From Pirellulales bacterium (GTDB lineage: Bacteria; Planctomycetota; Planctomycetia; Pirellulales; DATAWG01): DNA of 64,000 nt. Numbering within the stretch: the stretch's first letter is position 1; every line of letters begins with the position of its first letter. Of this stretch, positions 3,313-45,687 are shown in pieces. The notes beneath the pieces are model-generated. The model saw only the letters and a program-made list of their open reading frames with translations. It had not been told where the DNA came from and searched no databases. Location of the stretch: positions 6,577 to 70,576 of the forward strand of contig DASZFO010000380.1 in the NCBI GenBank assembly GCA_035939775.1, in the 5' to 3' direction. A program made the translations under genes and the position numbers.

Positions 3313-5802
3313 ATGGAAATGCGCAAAGCTCATCAACTCTCAGCAGCGGCGCTGTTACTGGCCGCGATAACCGCCACCGCTCGCGCGGCCGACCCGTCGC
3401 TAGCCGATGCGCAGCGACTATTTCTCAGAGGCGCGTACGCCGAGGCTGGTGAGATGTTCGGCCAATTGGCGGAGAAGGAGCCGGCGGCGGTGGTTGGAGC
3501 CGCTCGCTGCCTATCGTCCGTCGGTAAGACGGACGAGGCGGTGACGCTCCTTGAAGCAGCAGCGAAAAAGCGTAACGCAAACGGCGAGATTCATGCCGAG
3601 TTGGCCCGATTGGCCTTGGAGCGAGGGGATTACAGGGAAGCCGAAGATCGGGCGCTCTTCACGATTTGCGGGTGGCCCAATGAGATGCCTGCCGCCGCCC
3701 AAGCGAAATGGACCCTTGCGGAACTGCGTTGTCGCGAAGGTCGGCTCGATGAGGCTCAGAGAATCTACAAGCGGCTCGTGGATTTCCACAATTCTGCGGA
3801 TGAGATCAAGGACCCAGACGCGCTGCGGTACATTGGCTTGTGCGCCGCTCAATACGCCCGCTGGACTCGGCAGAGCGACCAATTCCATTTTCTTGTCAAC
3901 GAACTGTATCCCGACATTCTCAAGCTCGACAAAGACTATTGGCCGGTCCATTACGAGGCGGGGCTGCTCTATTTGGAGAAGTTCAATCAGGCCGACGCTG
4001 CCGCAGAATTCAAAGCGGCGTTGGCGATCAATCCGCAGGCGGCCGAAGTCCACGCCGCCCTCGCCAGCCTCGCTTTGCAGAATTTCGAACTGTCCGAGGC
4101 GCACGCATCGATCAAGCGAGCGCTGGAAATCAATCCGCGGCTCCTCTGGGCGCGGCAGCTTCAGGCCGATGTGCAACTTGCCAATTTCGAGCCGGCGGAA
4201 GCAGTCGAATCACTCAAGGAAACGCTCAAGCTCAATCCGCTCGACGAGCGAACGCTCGGCCGGCTCGCGGCTGCGTACGCCGGAATGGACGGCGTGCCCG
4301 AGAAAGTCGCCGGCACTCGGCTCGGCCGGCTGATCGACGAAGTTTCCACCCACAATCCGCACGCCGGAGAGTTCTTCACGGCGCTGGCCGACGGGCTGGA
4401 TCGACTCAGCCGCTATCCGGACGCCGCCCGTTTCTATCGCGCGGCGATCGAGCACATGCCGCAGCTTGTCGCTCCGCGCGGGCAATTGGGGCTGGTCACC
4501 ATGAGACTCGGCAATGAGATCGAGGCCGACAAGCTGCTCCGCGAATCGTTCGATATCGACCCGTTCAATGTCCGCGTGAGCAACACGCTCAAGGTACTCG
4601 ACGTGCTTGCCGGCTACGCCACGATCGAGACGGACCATTTCGTCATCAAGTTCGACCGCGCTCAGGACGAATTCCTGGCGCACAATGCGGCGAAATACCT
4701 CGAAGGCGAGGTCTATCCGCAGTTGGTCAAGAAATTCGGTTTTCAGCCCGAGGGGAAGTCGCTGTTCGAGATTTTCAGCCGCGCGAAGAATACTAACGGA
4801 CACGGCTGGTTCAGCGCTCGGATGGTCGGCCTGCCGTACATTGGCACGGTCGGGGCCTGCGCCGGGCGAATGGTGGCCATGCAATCGCCGAACGACGGGC
4901 CGCACAAGTTCAATTGGGCGCGTGTGCTGCGGCATGAATTCGTGCACGTCGTGAACCTCCAGCAAACGAACTTCAACATCCCGCATTGGTTCACGGAGGC
5001 CCTGGCGGTGCAGAACGAGGGCTTTCCGCGGCCGCCGCAGTGGGATAGTCTGCTCGTCGATCGGATGGCGAAAGGAAAGCTCTACAACCTCGAAACAATC
5101 GACTCGGGGTTCATTCGTCCGAAATCGAGCGACGACTGGGCGATGGCCTATTGCCAGGCGGAGTTGTATGCCGACTACATGCTCGACCGCTTCGGGCCCG
5201 ACGCACTGGCCAAGATGCTCGCCGGCTATTCCGACAATGTGAACACGCGCACTGCCATCCGCCGTTCGTTCGGATTCGAGCCGGCCGATTTCGAGAAGGG
5301 ATACGTCGAGTATCTGAAAAAGATTGTCGCGGGCATTGGGCAAAGCCGGCGAGGCGTCCAGTCGCTCAAGGCACTCGCGCGGGAGTATCTGAAGGCGGGC
5401 GAAGATCAGAAGCTATTCAACGTGCTCGTCAAGCTGGTGGAATTGGATCCCGACGATTTGCCGATGCGGAAGAAGCTGGCGCAATTGGCTCTCGCGGAGA
5501 AAAACTACGATTCAGCCGCCTGCTGGGCCAAACAAAGCCTGTTTATCGACGTACAAGATGTGGATTCGCACGAGACGCTTGCCGAGGCGCTGCTCGGTCG
5601 GCAAGAATATGCAGCCGCCGTGGAAGAACTCGAAGCGGCGGTCAAGCTGGAGCCGAAGACCCTCAGCCTGCAACTCTCCCTGGCCGACGCATACGTCCGC
5701 GCCGGTCAAACTGAAAAGGGCAGGGGAGCGCTCAACGCGATCCTGGCAGTGGACGCAAACTTTCCCGGCGCCGCCGAAATGTTGGAGAAACTGAAACCGT
5801 GA
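3313..5802 (+). CDS. Secreted TPR-repeat protein with an embedded HExxH (peptidase MA-like) domain
   Basis: 829 aa. Signal-like N-terminus AALLLAAITATARAADP. Multiple TPR-like helices flank the metalloprotease motif LRHEFVHVVN. Confidence 0.7.
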   Translation: MEMRKAHQLSAAALLLAAITATARAADPSLADAQRLFLRGAYAEAGEMFGQLAEKEPAAVVGAARCLSSVGKTDEAVTLLEAAAKKRNANGEIHAELARLALERGDYREAEDRALFTICGWPNEMPAAAQAKWTLAELRCREGRLDEAQRIYKRLVDFHNSADEIKDPDALRYIGLCAAQYARWTRQSDQFHFLVNELYPDILKLDKDYWPVHYEAGLLYLEKFNQADAAAEFKAALAINPQAAEVHAALASLALQNFELSEAHASIKRALEINPRLLWARQLQADVQLANFEPAEAVESLKETLKLNPLDERTLGRLAAAYAGMDGVPEKVAGTRLGRLIDEVSTHNPHAGEFFTALADGLDRLSRYPDAARFYRAAIEHMPQLVAPRGQLGLVTMRLGNEIEADKLLRESFDIDPFNVRVSNTLKVLDVLAGYATIETDHFVIKFDRAQDEFLAHNAAKYLEGEVYPQLVKKFGFQPEGKSLFEIFSRAKNTNGHGWFSARMVGLPYIGTVGACAGRMVAMQSPNDGPHKFNWARVLRHEFVHVVNLQQTNFNIPHWFTEALAVQNEGFPRPPQWDSLLVDRMAKGKLYNLETIDSGFIRPKSSDDWAMAYCQAELYADYMLDRFGPDALAKMLAGYSDNVNTRTAIRRSFGFEPADFEKGYVEYLKKIVAGIGQSRRGVQSLKALAREYLKAGEDQKLFNVLVKLVELDPDDLPMRKKLAQLALAEKNYDSAACWAKQSLFIDVQDVDSHETLAEALLGRQEYAAAVEELEAAVKLEPKTLSLQLSLADAYVRAGQTEKGRGALNAILAVDANFPGAAEMLEKLKP

Positions 5803-6164
5803 GCGGCGCATCATTCGGCGATTCTGCCCCTGGAAGCGCAGCGCGCGGCGACTCGCCGCATGCCTTCACGCTGTCGAGCTTTCAGCAATTGATCCGCGAC
5901 ATGTACCTGAAAAAGGACCTCGCTCGCGGCGTGGACGGCACCTTCATGTGGCTGATCGAAGAGGTCGGCGAGTTGGCCGGGGCACTGCGCAGCGGCACCC
6001 ACGAAGAGCGGCTCGGCGAATTCGCCGACGTGCTCGCCTGGCTGGCCACGATCGCCAATGTCGTCGGAGTCGATCTGAGCGAAGCCGTCGCTCTAAAGTA
6101 CGGCACGGGCTGCCCCGGCTGTGGCCAATTGGTCTGCACCTGCGCCGATGCGGAGAAGCCATGA
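5799..6164 (+). CDS. MazG-like nucleotide pyrophosphohydrolase domain protein
   Basis: 121 aa. Core segments EEVGELAGALR and EFADVLAWLATIANVVGVDL are MazG-like. C-terminal Cys cluster CPGCGQLVCTC. GTGA overlap with the upstream stop. Confidence 0.75.
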   Translation: MSGASFGDSAPGSAARGDSPHAFTLSSFQQLIRDMYLKKDLARGVDGTFMWLIEEVGELAGALRSGTHEERLGEFADVLAWLATIANVVGVDLSEAVALKYGTGCPGCGQLVCTCADAEKP

Positions 6165-6797: not shown

Positions 6798-7022
6798 ATG
6801 ATAACGATCACTTTTCCCGACCGCGAAACTGAGAAGCGTGCGTTGGCGTTCTTGATCGGCCGCTTTTCCGGCCGCGCGAATCGCGCGGGCGACCATTTCG
6901 TGCCCGAGGCGGCGCTGGAAGCGTTAGCCGACCAGAATATCCCATTTACTGTCAAGGGCAAGACAACCTATGAGCAACAGGTGGCGGCGGTACGAGGTGA
7001 TGCTTCCGCTCCGATTCAATGA
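6798..7022 (+). CDS. Hypothetical small protein (74 aa)
   Basis: ATG at 6798. Protein begins MITITFPDRETEKRALAFLIGRF. Its 3' end overlaps the start of the next small frame. Confidence 0.5.
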   Translation: MITITFPDRETEKRALAFLIGRFSGRANRAGDHFVPEAALEALADQNIPFTVKGKTTYEQQVAAVRGDASAPIQ

Positions 7023-9551: not shown

Positions 9552-9624
9552 CTGCCGTCCGCGCTCCGCCGGCGCGTCTCGGCTAAACAGACTTGCTCCG
9601 GCCTCCGACCTCCGGCTTCCCCCG

Positions 9625-10551
9625 ATGATTGAAACTCGCGATCTGACGAAAAAATACGGCGAGCTGTTCGCCGTCAAGTCGCTCGACATCAAGCTCGAGC
9701 CGGGGGACGTGTTCGGCTTCATCGGACCCAACGGGGCCGGCAAGACCACGGCGATGAAGATTCTGGCCACGCTCTTGAACCCCACCTGGGGCGAGGCCTA
9801 CATCTGCGGCAACTCGATCTACACGCGGCCGAAAGAGATTCGCCGGCTGATTGGCTTCATGCCCGATTTCTTCGGCGTCTACGACGACATGAAGGTGATC
9901 GAGTATCTGGAGTTCTTTGCCGCCGCCTATCGCATCAGCGGCCCAAAGCGGCGAAAGATTTGCAACGAGGTGCTCGATCTGGTGGGACTGGACTACAAGC
10001 GCGACGCGCTGGCCACGAGTCTCTCGCGCGGCATGACGCAAAGGCTCGGGCTGGCCCGCGTGTTGCTGCATGATCCGCAAGTGCTCCTGCTCGACGAGCC
10101 GGCCAGCGGGCTCGATCCGCGGGTGCGGATCGAGATTCGCCGAGTGATCAAGCACCTCGGTCAGTCGGGCAAGACGATCATGGTCTCCAGCCACATCTTG
10201 CCCGAGCTGGCCGACATGTGCAATAAGATCGGGATCATCGAAAAGGGAGAACTGTTGGTGAACGCGGACGTGGGCGAGGTGATGAAGCTAGTCCGCCGCC
10301 AGGTGGTGCTGCAAATCTCGATCGCGGGCGACCAGCAGCCCGCCGCCCGCTTGCTCGAGCAACATCCGCACGTCCAGCAGATCGAGCTGCGCGACGGCCT
10401 GGTTTCCGTCACTCTTCGCGAAGGAATCACGGACTACAGCGATTTCGCCGGCTTGTTGATCTCCGCCGGGCACAAGCTGACACTCTTGCGCGAAGACGAA
10501 TTGAACCTTGAGACCGCCTTCATGGCGCTTACCAAGGGAATCACGGCCTAG
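9625..10551 (+). CDS. ABC transporter ATP-binding protein
   Basis: 308 aa. Walker A GPNGAGKTT, signature LSRGMTQRL, Walker B LLLDEPASGLD. No adjacent permease gene. Confidence 0.9.
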   Translation: MIETRDLTKKYGELFAVKSLDIKLEPGDVFGFIGPNGAGKTTAMKILATLLNPTWGEAYICGNSIYTRPKEIRRLIGFMPDFFGVYDDMKVIEYLEFFAAAYRISGPKRRKICNEVLDLVGLDYKRDALATSLSRGMTQRLGLARVLLHDPQVLLLDEPASGLDPRVRIEIRRVIKHLGQSGKTIMVSSHILPELADMCNKIGIIEKGELLVNADVGEVMKLVRRQVVLQISIAGDQQPAARLLEQHPHVQQIELRDGLVSVTLREGITDYSDFAGLLISAGHKLTLLREDELNLETAFMALTKGITA

Positions 10552-14002: not shown

Positions 14003-14273
14003 TGCTAACCAGGGTGTTTGAGCCGTAAATCAAGAAACGATCGCGGCGACCGGTCGTGCGGATTATAGGAGCGCAAGCGAGCGGGCCCAATCGCAATCGC
14101 TTATGACGCTTGAGATTGCGCCGTGCTAGTCAAAGTTTATGTAGAATTTCCAGACTTTCCCTGCGGAAAAAAACCCCCAAACTACTTGAATTAAGAAAAG
14201 TCCTCTGTATCTTTGCTTGTAGGCCCGTGGGACTATGGATTCCGTTTTACCTTTACAGGGGGAGCGAGACACG

Positions 14274-15221
14274 ATGTTGCGACTGAAACTGACAAAGTGG
14301 CTGGTTGGATTTGCGGTATTGGCCGGCACGCTCGCGCTGGGCGCGGGCCGGGCCGATGCTCATCTCCACCATGGAAGTTGGGGATCCTGCGGTTCGTCTG
14401 GCGGAAGCTGGGGATCGCACGGCTCCTGGGGAAGTTGCGGTAGCTGCGGGTACGTAGTGTCGTGCTATTCGAGCGGCGGTAGCTGGGGATCCAGCGGCGG
14501 CAGTTGGGGATCGAGTGGCGGAAGCTGGGGATCAAGCGGCGGTAGTTGGGGATCGAGCGGCGGCAGTTGGGGATCAAGCGGCGGCGTCTATTACTCCGCT
14601 CCGGCCGCTCCAGATTCGGCACCGATGGCTCCCACGCCTCCGATGGGCCCTGGCGCTCCGGTGGCGCCCAAGCCCCCCACTCCTGGCAGCACCTACGCTC
14701 AGCCTGATGCCGGCTATCTCTTGGTAAGTGTTCCCACCGACGCCAAAGTGTTCGTCAACGGCCATGCGACCACTAGCACTGGCGCAGAACGGCAGTATGT
14801 TTCACGCGGGCTGGAAGACGGTCAGCGTTACTCGTATGAAGTGCGAGCCGAGATCATCCGCGATGGCAAGACGGTGACCGAAACGAAGATCGCTCAATTG
14901 ACGGCCGGCGGCATGGCTAACGTGTCGTTCTCATTCGCGGGTGCTCCGCAGACTGCTTCGACCAAAGCCCCGCGGACCGCGCTGAAAGTGAATGTGCCGT
15001 CCGATGCGAAAGTGTTCCTATCGGGCAAGGAGACTAGTTCGACCGGTCCGGTTCGTGAGTTCAGCACGACGGCGCTGGCCGATGGTTCGACTTGGGACAA
15101 CTACACGGTCCGTGTCGTGAGCCAGGGCGAGACTAAGGAACAAACAATCTCGTTGAAGGCCGGCGAAAGCCGCGAATTGAGTTTCGATTTTGGCGCGTCC
15201 GAAGTCGCTTCGGCCCGCTAG
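14274..15221 (+). CDS. Secreted Gly/Ser/Trp-repeat protein with two TIGR03000-like (Planctomycete) domains
   Basis: Signal peptide MLRLKLTKWLVGFAVLAGTLALGAGRADA. SGGSWGS repeats follow. Two units match the pattern xLxVxVPxDAKVFxxGxxTxSTG..R.F..: YLLVSVPTDAKVFVNGHATTSTG and ALKVNVPSDAKVFLSGKETSSTG. Confidence 0.65.
   Translation: MLRLKLTKWLVGFAVLAGTLALGAGRADAHLHHGSWGSCGSSGGSWGSHGSWGSCGSCGYVVSCYSSGGSWGSSGGSWGSSGGSWGSSGGSWGSSGGSWGSSGGVYYSAPAAPDSAPMAPTPPMGPGAPVAPKPPTPGSTYAQPDAGYLLVSVPTDAKVFVNGHATTSTGAERQYVSRGLEDGQRYSYEVRAEIIRDGKTVTETKIAQLTAGGMANVSFSFAGAPQTASTKAPRTALKVNVPSDAKVFLSGKETSSTGPVREFSTTALADGSTWDNYTVRVVSQGETKEQTISLKAGESRELSFDFGASEVASAR
14471..14584 (+). repeat. 21-bp tandem repeat x about 5.4 encoding SGGSWGS
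   Basis: Units read directly: agcggcggtagctggggatcc / agcggcggcagttggggatcg / agtggcggaagctggggatca / agcggcggtagttggggatcg / agcggcggcagttggggatca / agcggcggc. Differences between units are synonymous. Degenerate copies extend upstream from about 14370. Confidence 0.9.
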
Positions 15222-16261: not shown

Positions 16262-17235
16262 AACTGCTCGCCGATTATTTCCGCGACTTATTCCGCGCCA
16301 CGGTCGCCGGCTGGGACCGCTTCTGGTTCATGCCCGCCGATCCGGCCACGCTGGGCCTGATTCGCATCCTCGCCGGAAGCATGCTCTTCTACACGCATCT
16401 GATCTGGTCGCTCGATCTGGAATCGTTTTTTGGCAATCGCGGCTGGTTGTCGCCGGACGTGCTCGGACGGATGCCGGAACGAGTCGGCGCATGGACTTAC
16501 TTCGATTGGATTCATGCGAGCGGCACCCTCTGGACTGCGCACATCGCGGCACTCATGGTGTTCGCAATGTTGACCGTCGGCTTGTTCAGCCGCACGATGT
16601 CAGTGCTTGCCTATCTGATCACCGTCTCGTACGCCAACCGAGTTCCGCTGGCGTGGTTTGGCCTCGACGACATCAATGCGCTGTTGGCGATGTATCTGAT
16701 GGTCGGTCCCAGCGGGGCGGCCTTTTCGCTGGATCGTCTCTGGGCGCGGGGCAGGGCAGGGCCGCCGCTAGCAGTCCAGCCGAGCGTCGGGGCCAACTTG
16801 GCGATTCGGCTGATTCAGATCCACATGTGCATCGTGTATCTGTTTTCGGCAATGGGTAAGCTTACGGGGGAGAGTTGGTGGGCAGGATCGGCGATCTGGC
16901 TCTCGGTTGGGAATCTCGAATATCAGTCGCTCGACATGACATGGCTGGCCGGTCATCTCCTCTTGGTCAATTTCCTGACGCATGCGACCGTCTTTTGGGA
17001 ACTCTCGTATTGTGTGCTCGTCTGGCCGCGGCTGTTGCGGCCGCTGGTGATCGCGATGGCGGTGCCGATCCATCTGGGAATCGCCGTTGCGCTCGGCATG
17101 CCAACCTTCGGCCTGGTGATGCTGATCGGCAACGCCGCCTTTATCTCACCGGCGCTCGTCCGCAAGCTCCTCGATCGCCGAACGGAGCAGGGCAGGGGAG
17201 GGGAGGCGGTTGAATTGGAACCCGTGTCCGCGTGA
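16258..17235 (+). CDS. HTTM-domain (vitamin K-dependent gamma-carboxylase-like) polytopic membrane protein
   Basis: 325 aa. N-terminal ADPATLGLIRILAGSMLFYTHLIW and ..GAAFSLDRLW.. resemble the HTTM fold family. Assignment is from memory of the family pattern. Confidence 0.55.
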   Translation: MKLLADYFRDLFRATVAGWDRFWFMPADPATLGLIRILAGSMLFYTHLIWSLDLESFFGNRGWLSPDVLGRMPERVGAWTYFDWIHASGTLWTAHIAALMVFAMLTVGLFSRTMSVLAYLITVSYANRVPLAWFGLDDINALLAMYLMVGPSGAAFSLDRLWARGRAGPPLAVQPSVGANLAIRLIQIHMCIVYLFSAMGKLTGESWWAGSAIWLSVGNLEYQSLDMTWLAGHLLLVNFLTHATVFWELSYCVLVWPRLLRPLVIAMAVPIHLGIAVALGMPTFGLVMLIGNAAFISPALVRKLLDRRTEQGRGGEAVELEPVSA

Positions 17236-18460: not shown

Positions 18461-19279
18461 ATGCGCACGCTCAAATTGACGATCGCGTACGACGGAACTG
18501 ATTTCCTCGGATGGCAGTTTCAACCGGGCCGGCGCACCGTCCAGCAAACGCTGCAAGACGTGCTCGGCAAGATCACGGGCGAGACAATTTCGGTGGTCGC
18601 CAGCGGCCGGACCGACTCCGGAGTGCATGCCCTCGGGCAAGCGGTCAGTTTTGAGACCGGCAGCCGTTTATCCGATGACGTGCTCGCGCGGGCGTTGAAC
18701 GCGGAGTTGCCGGACGATATGGCCGTGATTGCCGTCGAAAGAGCGCCGTACGATTTCCATGTGATTCGCGATGCCGCGCGAAAGCGATACCGTTACGTGT
18801 TGCAAGATGGACTCGTTGCCGACGTTTTCAGCCGCCGCTACGCCTGGCACGTTTTCCGCCCGCTCGATGCTGGCGTGATGCACCGGGCAGCGCAAGCATT
18901 GGTGGGCCGGCACGATTTCTCAAGCTTCGAGACGAGCGGGTCGGAACGCACGACCACCGTTCGCACGGTTTTCGAACTAACTGTTGCCCGCCAGGCGATT
19001 CAGAGCGGTTGGCGCGGTGGTGCCGGCGCGGATGAAATTCATATCGAGGTGGCGGCGGACGGGTTCCTATACAATATGGTTCGCAACATCGTCGGAACGC
19101 TGGTCGAAGTTGGCCGCGGCGTTCGCGACGAAACCTGGCCCGCCGCGGTCCTCGCCGCGCGCGATCGCCGCGCCGCCGGCCCGACCGCGCCCCCGCAGGG
19201 ATTGTTTCTGGTTAGCGTGGAATTTGAGGGACGAGGGGCGAGGGACGAGGGGAAAGGGGAGGTTGCGATTGAGCCATGA
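18461..19279 (+). CDS. truA: tRNA pseudouridine(38-40) synthase
   Basis: Start at MRTLKLTIAYDGTDFLGWQ. Catalytic motif GRTDSGVHALGQ. The C-terminal tail GRGARDEGKGEVAIEP is repeat-encoded. Confidence 0.9.
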   Translation: MRTLKLTIAYDGTDFLGWQFQPGRRTVQQTLQDVLGKITGETISVVASGRTDSGVHALGQAVSFETGSRLSDDVLARALNAELPDDMAVIAVERAPYDFHVIRDAARKRYRYVLQDGLVADVFSRRYAWHVFRPLDAGVMHRAAQALVGRHDFSSFETSGSERTTTVRTVFELTVARQAIQSGWRGGAGADEIHIEVAADGFLYNMVRNIVGTLVEVGRGVRDETWPAAVLAARDRRAAGPTAPPQGLFLVSVEFEGRGARDEGKGEVAIEP

Positions 19280-19399
19280 CGACAACCTGATCGCCTGGCA
19301 TCCGGAGGCAAAAATGCCGGGGAACTGCACCCACTAAAGGCTGCTCAACGATCGTCCCTCATCACTCGTCCCTCACCCCTCACCGCTCGTCCCGCCCCC
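19226..19399. repeat. Inverted pair of GAGGGACGAGGGG repeats spanning the truA stop and the truA/GT4 spacer
   Basis: Left arm 19226-19262: gagggacgaggggcgagggacgaggggaaaggggagg. Right arm 19353-19399: cgtccctcatcactcgtccctcacccctcaccgctcgtcccgccccc. The right arm contains CTCGTCCCTC, the reverse complement of GAGGGACGAG. Confidence 0.6.
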
Positions 19400-20557
19400 G
19401 TGCGAATCGCCCACGTCATCACGCGAATGATCGTTGGTGGAGCGCAGGAAAACACGCTGCTTTCTTGCGAAGGGAGCATGCGCCGGCACGGGGCCGAGGT
19501 GCTGCTCGTGACGGGACCCGCGCTTGGGCCAGAGGGAAGTTTGCTCGAGCGAGCCAGGGCAGGGGGGGTGCCGCTGGAAATCGTGCCCGAGCTGCGCCGA
19601 TCGATCCGTCCTCGGCTCGATTGGCAAAGTTATTGGAAGATCAAACGATCCCTGAGGGAGTTTCGTGCCGACGTCGTCCATACGCACAGTGCAAAAGGGG
19701 GCATTCTGGGGCGCGCCGCGGCGTCGAAGCTCGGCGTTTCCGCGATCGTGCACACGGTGCACGGCGCGCCGTTTCACTCGTATCAAAACGCCTTGGCTCG
19801 CGAGTTTTCCCGCCGTTGTGAGTGCTGGGCCGCCCGACGATGTCATGCACTGGTCAGCGTGTCGGATGCTATGACCGACCTGATGGTCGAAAATCATATC
19901 GCGCCGCGCGAGAAGTTCACGACGATTTACAGCGGTTTGGAGGTTGAACCGCTTCGAGCCGCCGATTCCAAGCGCGATGCCGTTCGCGCCGAGTTGAGCT
20001 ATTCCTCCGAGCATTTCGTGATCGGAAAGATCGCACGGTTGTTTGACCTCAAGGGACATGAGTTTCTTGTGCGGGCGGCCCCAGCGATCGTCGCGGCCTG
20101 GCCCAACGCGCGGTTTTTGCTAATCGGCGACGGCACCCTCCGCAAGCAGGTTGAATGCCAAGTGGCCGGCGTCGGATTGACGGATCGATTTACGTTTCTC
20201 GGTCTCGCAGCGCCGGAGCGGATTCCCGAATTGATCGCCGCGATGGACGTGGTGGTTCACGCGAGCCTGCGGGAAGGCCTGGCCAGGGCCGTGGTGCAAG
20301 CTCTGCTCGTCGGCCGGCCGGTGGTGAGCTACGATGTCGATGGGGCGCGCGAAGTTGTGATCGACGGCGAGACGGGCTATCTCGTGCCGCCCAAATCGAT
20401 TGACGAATTGGCGCAAGCGGTGAGCCGGCTCGCAGCCGATCCCGCGTTGCGAGCGCAGATGGGGTCGGCGGGGCAGCGGCGCTTCGCCGATCCCTTTCGC
20501 CAAGAGCGGATGGTTGATGAGCTGCACCGGCTCTATGAGCGGCTCTTGGCGCGATAA
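19400..20557 (+). CDS. Glycosyltransferase family 4 (GT-B fold)
   Basis: 385 aa. N-terminus MRIAHVITRMIVGGAQ. C-terminal region EGLARAVVQALLVGRPVV..GETGYLVPP. GTG start. Confidence 0.85.
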   Translation: MRIAHVITRMIVGGAQENTLLSCEGSMRRHGAEVLLVTGPALGPEGSLLERARAGGVPLEIVPELRRSIRPRLDWQSYWKIKRSLREFRADVVHTHSAKGGILGRAAASKLGVSAIVHTVHGAPFHSYQNALAREFSRRCECWAARRCHALVSVSDAMTDLMVENHIAPREKFTTIYSGLEVEPLRAADSKRDAVRAELSYSSEHFVIGKIARLFDLKGHEFLVRAAPAIVAAWPNARFLLIGDGTLRKQVECQVAGVGLTDRFTFLGLAAPERIPELIAAMDVVVHASLREGLARAVVQALLVGRPVVSYDVDGAREVVIDGETGYLVPPKSIDELAQAVSRLAADPALRAQMGSAGQRRFADPFRQERMVDELHRLYERLLAR

Positions 20558-20578
20558 GTACGAAGTACAAAGGACGAA
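20556..20578 (+). repeat. 23-bp repeat AAGTACGAAGTACAAAGGACGAA (left arm of a perfect inverted pair)
   Basis: It overlaps the TAA stop of the GT4 gene (20555-20557). Its exact reverse complement occurs at 21798-21820. Confidence 0.9.
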
Positions 20579-20727
20579 AAGGGAGCTTCCACGTGCCTCG
20601 CGCTTGGTCGCTCGTCGTTCGATGCGTTGGTTGTCGCCCCGCAAGATGCCGATTAAACTGAATCAGCAGTGGAGAATTCGCCGCGATTTACCAAATCCTT
20701 GGCGCAGAGAATCTGAGGCCGCGTGAC

Positions 20728-21585
20728 GTGACGCAACAGGGCAAATATCTCGGGCAATATCGGCTGCTGAATCTGGTCGGCAATGGTCGGCACTGTCAGG
20801 TTTGGGAAGCCATGCACGACGGACGGAACGAACGTTACGCGCTCAAGGTCCTTCACCCCGATTATCGAAACGACGGCGAGCAGCTCAGTCTGATGAAGCA
20901 CGAGTTTGCCGTTGGGAAAGAGATGGATCATCCGCGGGTGGTGCGGATTTTCGAGTTCGACAGCTCCCGGATCGCTCCGTTCCTGGCGATGGAGTTCTTT
21001 GCCTCGGCGACGAACTTGAAGAAGCTGATCGCGCAAGGAGTCGACGTCATCGCCCGCCAGGTCCCCAAGATCATCGAGCAGGCCGCGGAGGGCCTGGCTT
21101 ACTTTCATCAACAGGGCTGGATCCATCGCGACATCAAGCCGAACAACTTCTTGGCCAACCCATCAGCGGACGTGAAGCTCATCGACTACGCGATCGCCGA
21201 GCGCCGCCGTGGCTTGCTCAGCCGCCTGTTCGGCAAATCGAAAATCCAAGGGACTCGCAGCTACATGTCGCCCGAGCAGATTCGCGGCCAACCGCTCGAC
21301 CACCGCACCGACATCTACAGCTTCGGCTGCGTGACGTTTGAGTTGTTGGCCGGCAGGCCGCCCTTCACGGGCAACTCGGAGAACGAGCTGCTCAACAAGC
21401 ATCTGAGGTCCCCGGCGCCCTCCGCCGAAACGTATAATAAATATCTCACCTATGAATGCGTCCAATTGGTGAAGTCGATGCTGGCAAAGAAACCGGATGA
21501 TCGTCCCGCGTCGATGGACGAGGTGCTCGATCACATTCGCGCCTACCGCGTCTACCGCTCGATGCCGGCGGCGCCGAAGGCCTGA
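20728..21585 (+). CDS. Serine/threonine protein kinase (kinase domain only)
   Basis: 285 aa. Motifs YALKVL, HRDIKPNNFL and GTRSYMSPEQ. GTG start. Confidence 0.9.
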   Translation: MTQQGKYLGQYRLLNLVGNGRHCQVWEAMHDGRNERYALKVLHPDYRNDGEQLSLMKHEFAVGKEMDHPRVVRIFEFDSSRIAPFLAMEFFASATNLKKLIAQGVDVIARQVPKIIEQAAEGLAYFHQQGWIHRDIKPNNFLANPSADVKLIDYAIAERRRGLLSRLFGKSKIQGTRSYMSPEQIRGQPLDHRTDIYSFGCVTFELLAGRPPFTGNSENELLNKHLRSPAPSAETYNKYLTYECVQLVKSMLAKKPDDRPASMDEVLDHIRAYRVYRSMPAAPKA

Positions 21586-21589
21586 CGGC

Positions 21590-21820
21590 AAGTACGAAGT
21601 ACGAAAGGGGACGGTGCTGGGCGCCACGATGACGGATTCATCCGGCCGGCGGTGCAATGTAAAGCGTGCTTGCCTTGATGTCGCAATTCAACTAGCCTAT
21701 CCCCTCATAGAGTTGTTTCACAACGATAATAGAAGTCTGTTTTCGTTCTCCCAACCCTGGGATATCTCGGCCGACAGCCACTAGACGACTTTCGCACTTC
21801 GTCCTTTGTACTTCGTACTT
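21590..21820. mobile_element. MITE-like unit: inverted GTACGAAGTAC-type repeats flanking a lower-GC core of about 180 bp
   Basis: Left end 21590-21614 is AAGTACGAAGTACGAAAGGGGACGG. Right end 21798-21820 is ttcgtcctttgtacttcgtactt, the reverse complement of AAGTACGAAGTACAAAGGACGAA. The core has no convincing ORF. Confidence 0.45.
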
Positions 21821-21831
21821 CGAACATTTCC

Positions 21832-22827
21832 GTGTCTTCCGGCCATCGACTTGCGTTTGAACGACCAATCTACGATCTGGAGTCACGGATCGCGGATCTA
21901 GATGCCGCCGCGCGCGAGGATCCCGTCGCGCGCGAGGAGCTGCGCCGTTTGCGGCGCGAATTGGTCGAGTTGACGCGGAAAGTCTTCAGCCACTTGACCC
22001 CTTGGGAAACCGTCGAGGTGGCCCGCCATCCCGATCGGCCGATGACGACCGACTACATCGAATTGGTATTCGATGAGTTCGTCGAGCTGCACGGCGACAA
22101 GGCGTTCGGAGACGATCGGGCGATCCGCACCGGATTCGCCAAGCTCGATCAGTTCAAGGTGATGATCGTTGGACATCAAAAAGGACGGACGGTCAAGGAG
22201 CGGAGTCTCTGCCATTTCGGTTGCGCGCATCCCGAGGGTTATCGCAAAGCGATGGAAAAGATGCGGTTGGCGGCGAAGTTCGGCCGGCCGGTGATTTGTC
22301 TGATCGACACGCCCGGGGCTTATCCCGGTGTCGAAGCGGAAGAGCGAGGGCAATCTCAAGTGATTGCCGACAGCATGTTCCAGATGTCGCGGTTGCCGAC
22401 CCCGATTGTATGCGTCGTGATTGGTGAAGGGGGATCCGGTGGAGCGCTCGGGATCGGGGTGGGCGACAAGGTAGCGGTGCTCGAGCACGCATATTACTCG
22501 GTGATCAGCCCAGAGGGGTGCGCCGGCATCTTATGGAAAAGCCACACCCACAAGGAAGAGGCCGCAAAAGCGTTACGACTGACCTCCCGCGACTTGCTGG
22601 GGTTAGGAGTCGTGGACGACGTGATCGACGAGCCACTCGGCGGCGCGCATCGAGATCATCCGCGAATGGCCGCCCGACTCAAGATGTATCTCATCAAGGC
22701 GCTCCGCGAGTTGACGCCGCGGCCACGCGAGGAACTTTTGGCGGCGCGCTACGAGAAGTTTCGCCAGATGGGAAGCTTCCTTGAGAACGGCGCGCTTCAA
22801 AACGGGGCGGGGGAAACGTCGCCATAG
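21832..22827 (+). CDS. accA: Acetyl-CoA carboxylase carboxyltransferase subunit alpha
   Basis: 331 aa. LAFERPIYDLESRIADL, DTPGAYPGVEAEERGQ and GEGGSGGALGIG are typical of AccA. Confidence 0.95.
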   Translation: MSSGHRLAFERPIYDLESRIADLDAAAREDPVAREELRRLRRELVELTRKVFSHLTPWETVEVARHPDRPMTTDYIELVFDEFVELHGDKAFGDDRAIRTGFAKLDQFKVMIVGHQKGRTVKERSLCHFGCAHPEGYRKAMEKMRLAAKFGRPVICLIDTPGAYPGVEAEERGQSQVIADSMFQMSRLPTPIVCVVIGEGGSGGALGIGVGDKVAVLEHAYYSVISPEGCAGILWKSHTHKEEAAKALRLTSRDLLGLGVVDDVIDEPLGGAHRDHPRMAARLKMYLIKALRELTPRPREELLAARYEKFRQMGSFLENGALQNGAGETSP

Positions 22828-29380: not shown

Positions 29381-29571
29381 GGAGCGCAGCCAGTCGCAAA
29401 CGGAAACGCAGAACAGCGATCTCAAGCCCAGGGGCGACAACCCCTGGGCTTGACCGCTGTGCAGAGAAGCGGCGAGCGGCACGTGACAGTCGATAGCGGC
29501 GCGACCCGCTGAATTAGTCCTATCCTTCGTACTTCGGACTTCATACTTTGTACTTCGCGCTTATCACGACA

Positions 29572-30312
29572 ATGGTCGACATGCACCGCAGCCGAGCGAA
29601 TTGCCCGGAGGTCTTCCGACCGCAAACTGCCGGCAAGTGGCTTGCTCTGGTGATCGCGGTGTGGGCTCACAGCTCGATTCTACTGGCCCAGCAACCGCCG
29701 GTTCACTACGAACATGCAGGAGCGCTGCCACCGGGAGCGATTGGCAGCCGGCAGCTTGAGCGAGGCGGACCATTGCCGGGATATTTTCAGCCGGTTGAGA
29801 TCGAGGCGCCCGCGGGCGCCTCGGTCTCAATGGCCGTGGACGATCAATTCAGCCCGCCAGCCGCTGCCCCGCTGAAAGCCGGTATGCTGATCGGCTCGGT
29901 CTATCGGCTGCGCGTGATGGGGATTCCGCGACACGAAGGGGTCGAGGTGTTCCCGACGATCGAAGTCGTCAATCGTCTTTATCCTCCGCCGGGACAGGAA
30001 GTGCGATTCCCCGTGCCGGTCGAAGTGACGCTCGAGGATCTGGAATTGGCAATGGACGGACATTTCGTCACGCGGATCGTCTATTTGGAGGATCCGAAGC
30101 TGGCACTGCCCGCCGCCGCCGACAAGGAGCATCAAAACTGGTTCGAGGTCGGACCGCACGACGATCCGCTGGCCGTGGCCGACCGCTTGGGCCGGCCGAT
30201 GGCCATTCTCCGAATCGGCGGCCGCGTGCCAACCGATCCCGATCGACCAGGAGGCGAATTCATGTACCACTCCCCTCCCCTGCTCATGCTTTCGGGTCAC
30301 CAATCGCAATGA
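29572..30312 (+). CDS. Secreted protein paralogous to the core of gene 1
   Basis: Hydrophobic segment WLALVIAVWAHSSILLAQQ. The segment GSVYRLRVMGIPRHEGVEVFPTIEVV..VEVTLEDLELAMDGHFVTRIVYLEDP aligns to GAIYRLKLTNIPGRPGVELYPTLELA..FELTAEDFEQVLSGNFVTKVIYLPDA of gene 1. The start is uncertain (29548, 29572 or 29581). Confidence 0.6.
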   Translation: MVDMHRSRANCPEVFRPQTAGKWLALVIAVWAHSSILLAQQPPVHYEHAGALPPGAIGSRQLERGGPLPGYFQPVEIEAPAGASVSMAVDDQFSPPAAAPLKAGMLIGSVYRLRVMGIPRHEGVEVFPTIEVVNRLYPPPGQEVRFPVPVEVTLEDLELAMDGHFVTRIVYLEDPKLALPAAADKEHQNWFEVGPHDDPLAVADRLGRPMAILRIGGRVPTDPDRPGGEFMYHSPPLLMLSGHQSQ

Positions 30313-33280: not shown

Positions 33281-33315
33281 AATAGAGAATCCAAAATCGA
33301 AAATCAAAATCCGTA

Positions 33316-33331
33316 CTCCCCTGCCCTGCCC
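33316..33331 (+). repeat. CTCCCCTGCCCTGCCC 16-mer (copy 1), just downstream of the calpain-like gene
   Basis: An exact match occurs at 34837-34852. It belongs to a recurrent GGGCAGGG/CCCTGCCC motif family. Confidence 0.8.
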
Positions 33332-33334
33332 TTC

Positions 33335-41248: not shown

Positions 41249-41394
41249 GCGATCGCCTGCCGACTGACCCCATCCCCTCCCCTGCCCTGGTCCGATATAC
41301 TTGGCGCATGGGGTTGTGAGCTTGGCTAATTTCCGGACGCCGCCGGGGAGCGCACCACAGAGACGGCGCCACCGCTTGGACGCCGCGTGTTTCA

Positions 41395-42594
41395 ATGGCC
41401 AAATCGAAGGCTGCATCCGGACGCGAAGCGATCGCCGCGCTCGACTATTTGGCTCACGCGGCGGACTATCCGCCGCGGGCGGTATGCGTGCTGTTTGGCG
41501 ACGAGCCGTTCTTGAAGAGCGAGGTTTTGGGTGCGCTCAGGTCGGTCGTCCTATCTGACGACCAGGCAGAGTTTTCCTCGCGCACGTTCGCGGGCGACGA
41601 AACGGAGCCGCGATCCGTGTTCGATGAATTGGCCACCGTAGCGCTCTTTGGCAGCGTCCGGCGTTTCGTGGTCGTTGCGGAAGCGGATGATTTCGTGAGC
41701 GCCAATCGGCCAGTGCTTGAGGATTACGCCGCCAAACCTTGCGCGACTGGTGTGCTCGTGCTCGACGTAAAGACATGGCCAAGCAACACGCGGCTCTTCA
41801 AGCAATTGGCCGAAACCGGTCTGCAGATCGACTGCAAAGCGCCGGCCGACGCGGCATTGCTCCCCTGGCTCCGCGACCGCGCCGAACGACAGTATCATGC
41901 GGCTTTCGCACGCGGAGCGGCGGAGCGTTTGCTCGAAATCGTCGGCCCTCAAATGGGGCGCCTCGATCAAGAAACGGCGAAACTCTCGCTTCTATCGGCG
42001 GCCCCTGCGCTGCCCTCCCCTGCCCCTCCCTCGGCTTCTCGGGTTCCCGACGCCCGTCCGGTGCCCCCTCGATCCACGAACCCTCCGCCGATCACCGTGC
42101 AACTGATCGAGGACGCAGTCGGCGGCTGGCGGGCAAAAACGGCTTGGGAGATGATCGACGCCGCAGCGGCCGGCGATGCCCGTGAGGCGCTCATCCAACT
42201 CGACCGCTTGATTCTGGCCGGCGAGAGCCCGGTGGCCCTGATGGGGCAAATCGCCTGGAGATTCCGGCAGCTTGCCGCCGCCGCGCGGATCGCCATGCAA
42301 GCCCAAGCCGTGGGTCAACGTGCTAATTTGCGTCACGCGCTCGAGCAGGTCGGCGTAAAGACCTGGCAAGGAGCCATGGACAAAGCCGAGGCAAATATGC
42401 GGCAGCTCGGCGCCCGCCGCGCCGGGCAGCTTTATCACTGGCTGTTGGAGGCCGACCTCGCGCTCAAGGGATCCAGTTCCTCCGGCGACCGCGCCCGCCT
42501 CGTCCTCGAACAGCTATTTGTCCGCATGTCGCGGCAACTCGCCCCGGCCCAGCCTGGTGCGCATCCTCGAACACCGGCGTCTAGAATTGGATGA
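41395..42594 (+). CDS. holA: DNA polymerase III subunit delta
   Basis: 399 aa. The N-terminal segment [16 protein letters not shown] and overall helical C-terminal layout are HolA-like. Contains a Pro-rich insert at about 41990-42075. Confidence 0.7.
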
Positions 42595-44035: not shown

Positions 44036-44100
44036 CCGTGAGCGGCGTGCCAGACGCCCGTCCTTGCGAGTCCCGAGCCCCGAATCCCCTGCCCAGGGGC

Positions 44101-45003: not shown

Positions 45004-45076
45004 GCGGGCGTAGCTCAGTTGGCAGAGCGCTAGCTTCCCAAGCTGGATGTCGAGGGTTCGAGTCCCTTCGCCCGCT
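45004..45076 (+). tRNA. tRNA-Gly (anticodon CCC)
   Basis: Hand-folded cloverleaf of 73 nt. Acceptor stem GCGGGCG/CGCCCGC, D stem GCTC/GAGC, anticodon stem CTAGC/GCTGG with loop TTCCCAA, T stem GAGGG/CCCTT with loop TTCGAGT, discriminator T. Confidence 0.9.
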
Positions 45077-45687
45077 CTTTCTCAATGCATAACCGTTTCT
45101 GGTTTTGCCAAACGCAGCTTTGTCACCCGTTCGTCGGGTCTTGCGCTGTGATCCGCTCATTCAAACCGCGAATCAGTTCCTCCCTGAACGAGATTATTGC
45201 CGCGTAGCTCAGCCGGCGATGCCATCGGCAACTTCAATGACCCGCGGCACTTGCGGGATTATCGCCGCGCGCCTGCTCGCCGAAAAACGCTCCGGCCCGG
45301 ACGGCCTTTTTAAAAATCTCAATAATCCCTAAAAAACTCAATCAAAATCGTTGCAGGGGATGGAGCTTTGTGGCACACTGCGACAACGCGCCTCGCGAAG
45401 CGGGACGCGTGCGCGGGTCGGCGTTTTTTGTCGTGCCCGGGGGCGGAATTCCAGGTCGGCTCGTGTTTCCCGCTCGGCAGCTTGCTTTGAGCGCCGGCCC
45501 TAACTATTGTATTTGAGACCTCTTATCTATTGCTTTTCGCTCCCGGTTTGGGAGTTGCGGAGACAGCGGCCGCCGGTTCTTGCAGAGAGACGCCGGCCCG
45601 GCGCGTGCGCGGTTTTGCGGAGAGAGCGGTTAGTTGACGCAAACTTTTTCGCCCACCAGATTCATTTCCGGTCAGGAGCCTTTGGCT

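Follow-up and report, generated by a model that had tools for sequence, protein, structure and literature searches.

A gene for a stand-alone Ser/Thr protein kinase that is enclosed by an exact inverted repeat raises the question of whether it is the cargo of a mobile element or whether the repeat belongs to something else. Such a gene lies in a stretch of 64,000 nucleotides from a Pirellulales bacterium (GenBank assembly GCA_035939775.1, contig DASZFO010000380.1, positions 6,577 to 70,576), hereafter the window. The 23-mer AAGTACGAAGTACAAAGGACGAA at 20556-20578 (+) is the exact reverse complement of 21798-21820 (−), and two matches to it were obtained in none of 100 dinucleotide-preserving shuffles of the window. 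Between the two sites lie only the kinase gene (20728-21585, +; 285 aa, Pkinase domain only) and the 246-nt spacer that separates it from accA (acetyl-CoA carboxylase carboxyltransferase alpha; 21832-22827, +). A preliminary description of the sequence had already recognized this pair, at these coordinates and with this content, and had proposed either a non-autonomous cassette bounded by terminal inverted repeats (TIRs) or elements resembling repetitive extragenic palindromes (REPs) at operon boundaries; the tandem-heptamer nature of the 23-mer had been missed. According to the present analysis, the two 23-mers are quite probably arrays of a heptamer simple sequence repeat (SSR) with the unit AAGTACG (variants AAGTACA and AAGGACG), which is one of several repeat families found at gene boundaries in this Pirellulales lineage.

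The 23-mer consists of 3.3 units of a tandem heptamer, namely AAGTACG, AAGTACA, AAGGACG and a final AA, and Tandem Repeats Finder (TRF) reported a period of 7 at all four sites of this family, starting at 20556 (3.3 copies), 21590 (2.3 copies), 21791 (4.6 copies) and 29525 (4.7 copies). When the 13-mer core was searched with up to 2 mismatches, 12 overlapping matches were obtained at the four sites, against 0.27 expected in the 64-kb window. The first array, A1 (20556-20578, +), is the left arm of the 23-mer pair and overlaps the TAA stop codon (20555-20557) of the GT gene. A2 (21590-21614, +; AAGTACG, AAGTACG, AAAGGGG, ACGG) begins 4 nt past the kinase stop and is the proximal partner of A3 (21791-21827, −), a reverse array of about five CTTCGTA-type units that is pyrimidine-rich on the + strand, ends 4-10 nt upstream of the accA GTG (21832) and contains the right arm of the pair. 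A4 (29522-29562, −), with about five to six units of the same family and likewise pyrimidine-rich on the + strand, ends 10 nt upstream of the ATG (29572) of a + strand gene. Its TRF span is 29525-29557 and the 13-mer matches cover 29522-29562, so that the degenerate reverse copy reported earlier near 29524-29560 is real. A2 had been reported as a third direct copy of the 23-mer; its position was correct, but it matches exactly over 16 nt only (21590-21605, AAGTACGAAGTACGAA) and diverges thereafter. The four arrays all occupy intergenic DNA next to a gene end; read in the direction of the adjacent gene, those that follow a stop codon are rich in purines and those that precede a start codon are rich in pyrimidines. 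The AAGTACG and AAGGACG units contain no GGG, and hence none of the four or more G-tracts (3+ G) that define the G-quadruplex subclass of such repeats.

The exact identity over 23 nt ties the array past the GT stop to the array ahead of accA. The chance of 1e-5 to 1e-4 that had been assigned to this identity is valid only for a comparison with random sequence; once both sites are taken as members of one array family, the identical order of three units has a probability of about 0.03, which is notable and consistent with copying between arrays. Between 20546-20578 and 29540-29572, the likeness was also seen to cover 10 nt of flank next to the array (TTGGCGCGAT vs TTGTCGTGAT, 8/10 positions); array plus flank could have been copied, or the likeness could be due to chance.

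To place these sites in their lineage, period-7 arrays were counted in 1.3 Mb of related loci. At a TRF score of at least 42, 38 arrays were found, 30 of which were intergenic or at gene ends, against 0.0 in block shuffles. Periods 5, 8, 10 and 11 gave 2-7 arrays each at this score, and period 14, which is a double heptamer with two alternating variants, gave 17 arrays (10 intergenic) against 4.6 in shuffles. The tallies used scores of at least 36 and at least 42; the tally at score 28, for which 98 of 160 rows were expected from shuffles, was not relied on. With the threshold at 36 there were 53 arrays; the nearest called gene boundary was at most 40 nt away for 36 of them and at most 5 nt away for 17. 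A clear polarity was observed: after stops, 14 arrays were purine-rich and 6 pyrimidine-rich, and before starts the counts were 2 and 12 (Fisher p = 0.002). The units themselves were hypervariable among genomes (AAGGATG, GGAAGTC, ATTGCGG, AATGAGG, CATTCCA and others). Heptamer arrays are a feature of this lineage at gene boundaries, with several unit families.

The AAGTACG family has four sites in the window, which covers only part of the source genome, and a metagenome scan with AAGKACRAAGKACRAAGKAC gave at least 120 loci, the GC content of the contigs ranging from 31 to 71%; among the matches listed, many have a reverse-complement array beyond a short loop. In the loci L091, L112, L177, L098, L111 and L176, whose contigs have a GC content of about 47-51%, arrays of the AAGGACA type adjoin arrays of the TTGGTCA/TGACCAA type, the unit of which is the classical STRR2 of cyanobacteria (STRR, short tandemly repeated repetitive sequence). 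The pyrimidine-rich arm is often the first one in these loci, opposite to the Planctomycetes loci.

The spacers on both sides of the kinase gene were then compared among relatives, of which L004 (a 2.3-kb JGI contig) is the closest, with a kinase 94% identical to that of the window, followed by L205 (76%), L002 (75%) and L206 (73%). In L205, the kinase-accA spacer carries GGAGGTC, GGAAGTC and further such units past the stop and five copies of CTCCGAC abutting the ATG (z = −6.0); in L002, GGGGTCG-type units follow the stop and CTGACCC-type units precede the ATG (z = −2.4); in L206, TTCGACC-type units stand ahead of the ATG. In the window, A2 and A3 form one long stem that closes the whole spacer (z = −2.5). 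The pyrimidine-rich arrays before accA in the window (A3), L205, L002, L206 and L001 align in register, and every accA-leader array is pyrimidine-rich in the sense strand, including those of L039 and L083. A matrix of self and cross duplexes was calculated across the relatives. The arms of the window gave −35.6 kcal/mol with each other, as compared with −17 to −22 kcal/mol with those of L205, L002 and L206, and the arms of L205 gave −53.7 kcal/mol with each other, the duplexes being strongest within their own genome. The arms of L002 and L205 cross-pair, hence about two independent states are represented, and the comparison is moderate evidence that the two arms change together.

Between A2 and A3, the alignment revealed a conserved promoter-like block, TTGCCT-17 nt-TAGCCT (21670-21698, +), which is kept as CTTGCCA-N17-TTAGCCTA in L205 (about 1533-1562), L002 (about 6948-6977) and L001 (about 6903-6931). 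From its conservation alone it may plausibly be the accA promoter with a non-canonical −10 element (TAGCCT); a sigma-70 consensus scan does not flag it. In L004, only 24 nt separate the kinase stop from the accA ATG (AAGTACAGAGAACGAATCC; L004 1410-1440), and both the promoter-like block and the reverse array are missing. The simplest explanation for the short spacer of L004 would be a derived loss of the stretch between the inverted arrays, since the long spacer, with its shared interior block, is found in the more distant L205, L002 and L001 alike, which makes the long form ancestral. Given this deletion, accA of L004 would depend on read-through from the kinase gene. The presence/absence polymorphism thus affects the spacer and not the kinase.

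At the GT stop, the array differs between the window and L004 by an indel of 28 nt (4 × 7), L004 being longer by four units, as expected for slippage. Alignment with L004 further revealed a degenerate remnant of the local reverse partner of A1 at 20598-20625 (−; CTCGCGC, TTGGTCG, CTCGTCG, TTCGATG), the equivalent of which is still recognizable in L004 (CATACTTTGCGGTTCGTACTTCGAC). With this degenerate partner, no significant fold was obtained for the GT-kinase spacer of the window (z = +0.9). L004 has a GT-stop array with a local partner and no accA-leader array, and no matching array was found past the GT stop in L205 and L002. Other repeats occupy this site in some relatives. A 22-nt near-perfect palindrome pair (CACACTAGCCCGAAGCGCTAGC ... 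GCTAGCGCTTCGGGCTAGTGT), the left arm of which overlaps the GT stop codon, lies at 5808-5905 of L002 and is a REP-like hairpin where the window has a heptamer array. L001 has yet another kind of boundary repeat there: past its GT gene (5737-5890), a unit of about 62 nt that holds two hairpins (CTTCACGCTCCGCGTGAAG, CCTCACGCGGAGCGTGAGG) is present as three tandem copies. The GT and accA genes of this contig were called as split open reading frames (ORFs), which suggests assembly frameshifts.

Inverted pairing of arrays is also seen beyond this locus. A reverse-complement partner within 400 nt was found for 16 of 95 period-7 arrays, as compared with 2-3 for reversed or complemented control queries and 0-6 for other periods. 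In 12 of 12 non-redundant Planctomycetes pairs, the purine-rich arm was 5′ and the pyrimidine-rich arm 3′. Since the two strands of an inverted repeat have the same sequence, the polarity belongs to the pair as such, and it places purines after the stop and pyrimidines before the start whatever the orientation of the flanking genes. By the same rule, neighbouring arrays of one family are automatically inverted. Among 553 spacers, the two ends paired at −30 kcal/mol or below in 21.0% of cases, against 13.9% for permuted pairs (p = 7e-4); the excess of self over cross complementarity in all 57 spacers was marginal (p = 0.055). The complementarity of the arms could result from homogenization at the DNA level, from selection on pairing, or from both.

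Further heptamer arrays of other families were found in the window. A forward array of a second family (GAGGGAC, GAGGGGC, GAGGGAC, GAGGGGA and so on) lies at the 3′ end of truA (19226-19258, +); it also occurs at the orthologous truA 3′ site in L206 and, unlike the AAGTACG family, does contain GGG. Its reverse partner (19353-19399, −; CGTCCCT, CATCACT, CGTCCCT, CACCCCT, CACCGCT, CGTCCCG, CCCCC) abuts the GTG start of the GT gene (19400), and the two arrays together form a stem that closes the whole truA-GT spacer (z = −3.2). A pyrimidine-rich array with a third unit (CTCCGGC, CTCCGAC, CTCCG; 9596-9614, +) ends 11 nt upstream of an ATG at 9625, following the same placement rule. Two arrays share the spacer of a convergent gene pair (33281-33334), AATCCAA, AATCGAA, AATCAAA after the stop of the + strand gene and CCCTGCC, CTGCCCT after that of the − strand gene; CCCTGCC reads GGGCAGG on the − strand, and both arrays are purine-rich in the sense of their own gene. 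Near further gene ends, G-rich or C-rich heptamer-like arrays of the AGGGCAG/GGGGAGG family were noted at 17183-17210, 41267-41294, 42001-42032 and 44066-44100. Two arrays of this family are 89% complementary over 28 nt though 24 kb apart, and they are a further long-range "inverted repeat" that reflects mere membership of a shared repeat family.

Other signals were searched for at the arrays. No site resembling an intrinsic (Rho-independent) terminator, with a short GC-rich hairpin and a U-tract, was found at any array, and the four terminator-like sites in 19150-22000 lie elsewhere and are at chance level. A promoter consensus scan found nothing at the arrays. With the Rfam 15 covariance models, no family matched the arrays; a tRNA-Gly alone reached the gathering score in the window, and the sole match at E ≤ 1 in 19100-22000 was a sub-threshold snoRNA.

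Taken together, the arrays change length in 7-nt steps, and the stop-proximal and start-proximal arrays of one spacer tend to share their unit. Between relatives the units are replaced on both arms, and the paired arrays fold into one stem around the spacer as a whole. The exact 23-bp inverted repeat is an ordinary consequence of such a repeat family, and a false lead has thereby been removed. As to how this state may arise and act, replication slippage would generate the arrays, and templated copying between arrays, or selection for complementarity, would keep them alike. Their most likely effect would be a REP-like punctuation or insulation of transcription units; in this respect the position and the probable role suggested by the REP-like alternative of the preliminary description are retained, but the elements are tandem heptamer arrays and not REP palindromes. 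In read-through RNA, the purine arm may pair with the pyrimidine arm and bury the initiation region of the downstream gene, while transcripts from the promoter-like block between the arms would carry the pyrimidine-rich leader alone and unpaired. A concrete model is thus offered, a read-through insulator with a promoter between its arms.

Several observations weigh against this interpretation. Only about one sixth of the arrays have a clear inverted partner, and the arm-order bias weakens to 78 vs 34 once metagenome loci from other phyla are added. In 118 inverted pairs, the arm mismatches comprised 297 transitions and 281 transversions, and G·U-compatible mismatches were equal in the two senses (58 sense vs 59 antisense); the inverted pairs bear no signature of RNA-helix selection. 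Where the flanking genes diverge (L074, L078, L068), each arm belongs to a transcript of its own, so RNA pairing cannot be the general function and the polarity rule of each single arm looks primary. The accA-leader arrays are limited to the clade with at least 73% kinase identity and to two independent Thermoguttaceae cases (L039, L083), from which it follows that any function of the arrays is dispensable. The gene calls of the census, moreover, were heuristic, being based on ORFs and on the GC content of third codon positions (GC3).

These points bear most directly on the main rival, in which the arrays are functionless by-products: slippage-prone DNA would be tolerated outside coding sequence, and the pairs and their polarity would stem from mutational or template-switch mechanics. 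The patchy distribution in relatives, the rapid turnover of units, the unit-step indels and the missing RNA-helix signature all fit such an origin, and testing in Xanthomonas and Nostoc found no function (PMC4692102). On the other side stand the close fit of many arrays to stop and start codons (the 17 of 53 within 5 nt), the polarity, which recurs in three phyla, and the persistence of an array ahead of accA in 4-5 genomes despite replacement of its unit. Simple tolerance is insufficient, since it does not predict the polarity. We therefore regard a purely functionless origin as unlikely, yet as the alternative to be taken most seriously.

Ranked second is the idea that the arrays act singly, as platforms for proteins that bind single-stranded RNA. 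Start-proximal pyrimidine heptamers may recruit proteins with an oligonucleotide-binding (OB) fold, such as S1 or cold shock proteins (CSPs), with a footprint of about 7 nt, and promote initiation independent of a Shine-Dalgarno (SD) sequence, the pairs being incidental. The distance from the end of a pyrimidine-rich array to the start codon is 0-12 nt, which is the SD position, with no SD sequence visible; at divergent gene pairs both mRNAs have the pyrimidine-rich arm as their leader; and a precedent has been proposed for TAACTGA heptamers (MacGregor 2015, PMC4679880). The purine-rich arrays after stops and the sharing of units by the two arms within a genome would be left unexplained, and this alternative appears improbable. 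A broader proposal, to which somewhat less credence is given, would combine it with the insulator model. Here a sequence-independent "format" (7-nt period, placement at stops and starts, purine-then-pyrimidine polarity) would be conserved across Planctomycetota, Xanthomonas and cyanobacteria, in place of any particular sequence or a G-quadruplex, and would insulate transcription units. A leader read by S1 or CSPs would drive SD-independent initiation, the purine array would silence that leader in read-through RNA, and in the window a 23-bp helix of RNase III size would form around the kinase gene.

Such a helix may also be considered on its own, as a long-range pairing of 20556-20578 with 21798-21820 in a GT-kinase-accA read-through RNA, which would loop out the kinase and provide an RNase III-type processing or regulatory site. 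RNase III needs a minimum of about 20 bp, which the 23 bp exceed. When 20540-21845 was folded, A3 paired with the distal A1 in a 23-bp helix (−42.4 kcal/mol, against −35.6 kcal/mol with the proximal A2), with 22.5 expected base pairs for the distal partner and 0 for the proximal one. Thus, the long-range pair is physically plausible according to the folding model, but probably incidental, because the kinase-enclosing arrangement is not conserved in L205, L002 and L004. Co-transcriptional folding would, moreover, favour the proximal partner, and no overall G·U bias exists. A specific role for this helix is accordingly considered very doubtful.

The segment of about 231 bp between kinase and accA (21590-21820) could in principle be a miniature inverted-repeat transposable element (MITE) with the heptamer arrays as its termini. 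Its size, its lower GC content and its terminal inverted arrays would fit, as would the fact that the closest relative, L004, is without the whole segment. Against this, the interior block CTTGCCA-N17-TTAGCCTA is at the same site in L205, L002 and L001, whose arrays differ in unit. No further copies of the interior (21606-21790) were found in the window and the related loci searched, no target-site duplication was found around 21590-21820 (flanks CCTGACGGC and CGAACATT), and there was no plasmid match. A MITE is highly improbable on these grounds.

As for the kinase itself, 4791 homologues were retrieved at E ≤ 1e-20, with full-length orthologues of the same size throughout Pirellulales, and its neighbourhood was surveyed in 86 Pirellulales/Planctomycetia loci (45-100% kinase identity). 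In all 79 loci with room for it (45-94% identity), the next gene downstream was accA, in the same orientation, GT lay directly upstream in 52 of 83, and the order asd-truA-GT-kinase-accA-cvpA-ydjM-dtd-pdxA was kept on contigs with 73-94% identical orthologues. No transposase was found among the genes neighbouring the kinase, in agreement with the preliminary description, and no target-site duplication was present at the flanks of the 23-mer pair (GGCGCGAT and CGAACATT). The empty sites in relatives that the cassette would predict were likewise not encountered, L004 lacking only the spacer. The kinase is a conserved, fixed core gene between two array-bearing spacers, and not cargo. A non-autonomous cassette, with the 23-bp repeats as transposon ends and the kinase mobilized in trans, is supported by one feature, the exact inverted pair around a single gene, and can be given next to no credence: the conserved kinase-accA synteny, the missing target-site duplication, the single-copy interior and the lack of a neighbouring transposase refute it, the supposed TIRs are tandem heptamers that recur at 21590, 29522 and the metagenome loci, and L205 and L002, with other units, bracket the spacer only and not the kinase. 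The motif is present at many intergenic sites with no presence/absence polymorphism of the kinase, which is essentially the outcome that the preliminary description had named as decisive against its cassette. The strict pairing of kinase and accA (20728-22827 in the window; L001-L084, L205, L206) hints at a functional link of the kinase with acetyl-CoA carboxylase.

Elsewhere in the window, an ORF at 14235-15221 (328 aa) has a signal-like segment at its N terminus and, encoded by a 21-nt DNA repeat (14469-14585), a series of (GGSWGSS)n repeats; it gave a weak CARDB match only and had been missed by the GC3-based gene call. The tRNA-Gly(CCC) is located at 45004-45077 and is followed by a giant ORF that begins at 45634 and runs off the window at 64000 (>6100 aa). 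This ORF is full of PATR autotransporter-type repeats and is the source of most direct-repeat families in the window.

The preferred reading, in which the 23-mers are tandem heptamer arrays of a boundary repeat family, was compared with known systems. Heptamer repeats have been known since 1990, when the STRRs were described, and no function had been established for them as of the papers of 2015. The cyanobacterial STRR units are CCCCAGT, TTGGTCA and CAACAGT. Like them, the present arrays are dispersed tandem heptamers in non-coding DNA, STRRs being present in many copies per genome with no established function, and the metagenome loci L091, L112 and L177 place TTGGTCA-type arrays beside AAGGACA arrays. 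STRRs, in contrast, comprise few fixed units in heterocystous cyanobacteria, whereas the unit here is lineage-specific and variable, and to our knowledge a boundary polarity rule is not part of their description. REPs and bacterial interspersed mosaic elements (BIMEs) are dispersed intergenic elements at operon boundaries whose stem-loops in read-through RNA are thought to stabilize or punctuate transcripts (PMC3733652). The arrays are likewise dispersed, intergenic, located at boundaries and able to form stem-loops in read-through RNA. Unlike REPs and BIMEs, which are imperfect palindromes with a conserved GTAG/CGTC head and a link to RAYT transposases, they are tandem heptamers that are not self-complementary and have no head.

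The TAACTGA direct repeats of marine Beggiatoaceae, cyanobacteria and Bacteroidetes occur in 2-6 copies, are overwhelmingly intergenic, reach to within a few nt of the downstream start codon, at the SD position, and show indels in 7-nt steps between strains (MacGregor 2015, PMC4679880). Binding of S1, CSP or CsrA has been proposed for them, CspB being known to bind heptamer repeats with one protein per unit (PMC4679880). The arrays resemble these repeats in being intergenic, start-proximal heptamers with 7-nt-step indels. The TAACTGA repeats differ in having one fixed unit across phyla, 1 inverted repeat in 170 sets and no complementary stop-proximal class.

The closest likeness is to the SSRs of Xanthomonas campestris, in which 186 (GGGAATC)n arrays with a period of 7 and a length of 2 to >10 units were described, 89-93% of them intergenic and 0-50 bp from ORFs (Rehm et al. 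2015, PMC4692102). After stop codons it is the coding strand that carries the G-rich sequence, and before start codons the non-coding one; X. campestris has 70 pairs of inverted, convergent arrays, related species have arrays between the same genes with varying length and sequence, and similar GGGGA(C/T)T arrays occur in Nostoc; the function of heptamer arrays was concluded to be still to be elucidated (PMC4692102). As cited in that paper, over-representation of heptamers and the idea of polymerase slippage go back to Mrázek (2007), and heptanucleotides of Calothrix to Mazel et al. (1990). Period, boundary placement, polarity, inverted pairs and unit-step length variation are all found in the arrays described here. 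The differences are that the focal AAGTACG unit has no G-runs, so that neither a G-quadruplex nor an i-motif is possible, that a single window of 64 kb holds several unrelated units, with replacement of units among close relatives, that the two arms frequently enclose a spacer of 100-200 nt as a whole, and that the host belongs to Planctomycetota. Among the papers in the collection searched, none links heptamer repeats with Planctomycetes, and the locus extends this kind of repeat to the phylum. The present case is an addition to a known kind of repeat whose function lacks an explanation, the new elements being the phylum and the unit that cannot form a G-quadruplex. With such a unit, the placement and polarity rules of Xanthomonas and Nostoc are seen to hold independently of sequence, and the arms that bracket a spacer change their unit together between relatives; by these two findings, the explanations for heptamer arrays are narrowed to period, polarity and complementarity.

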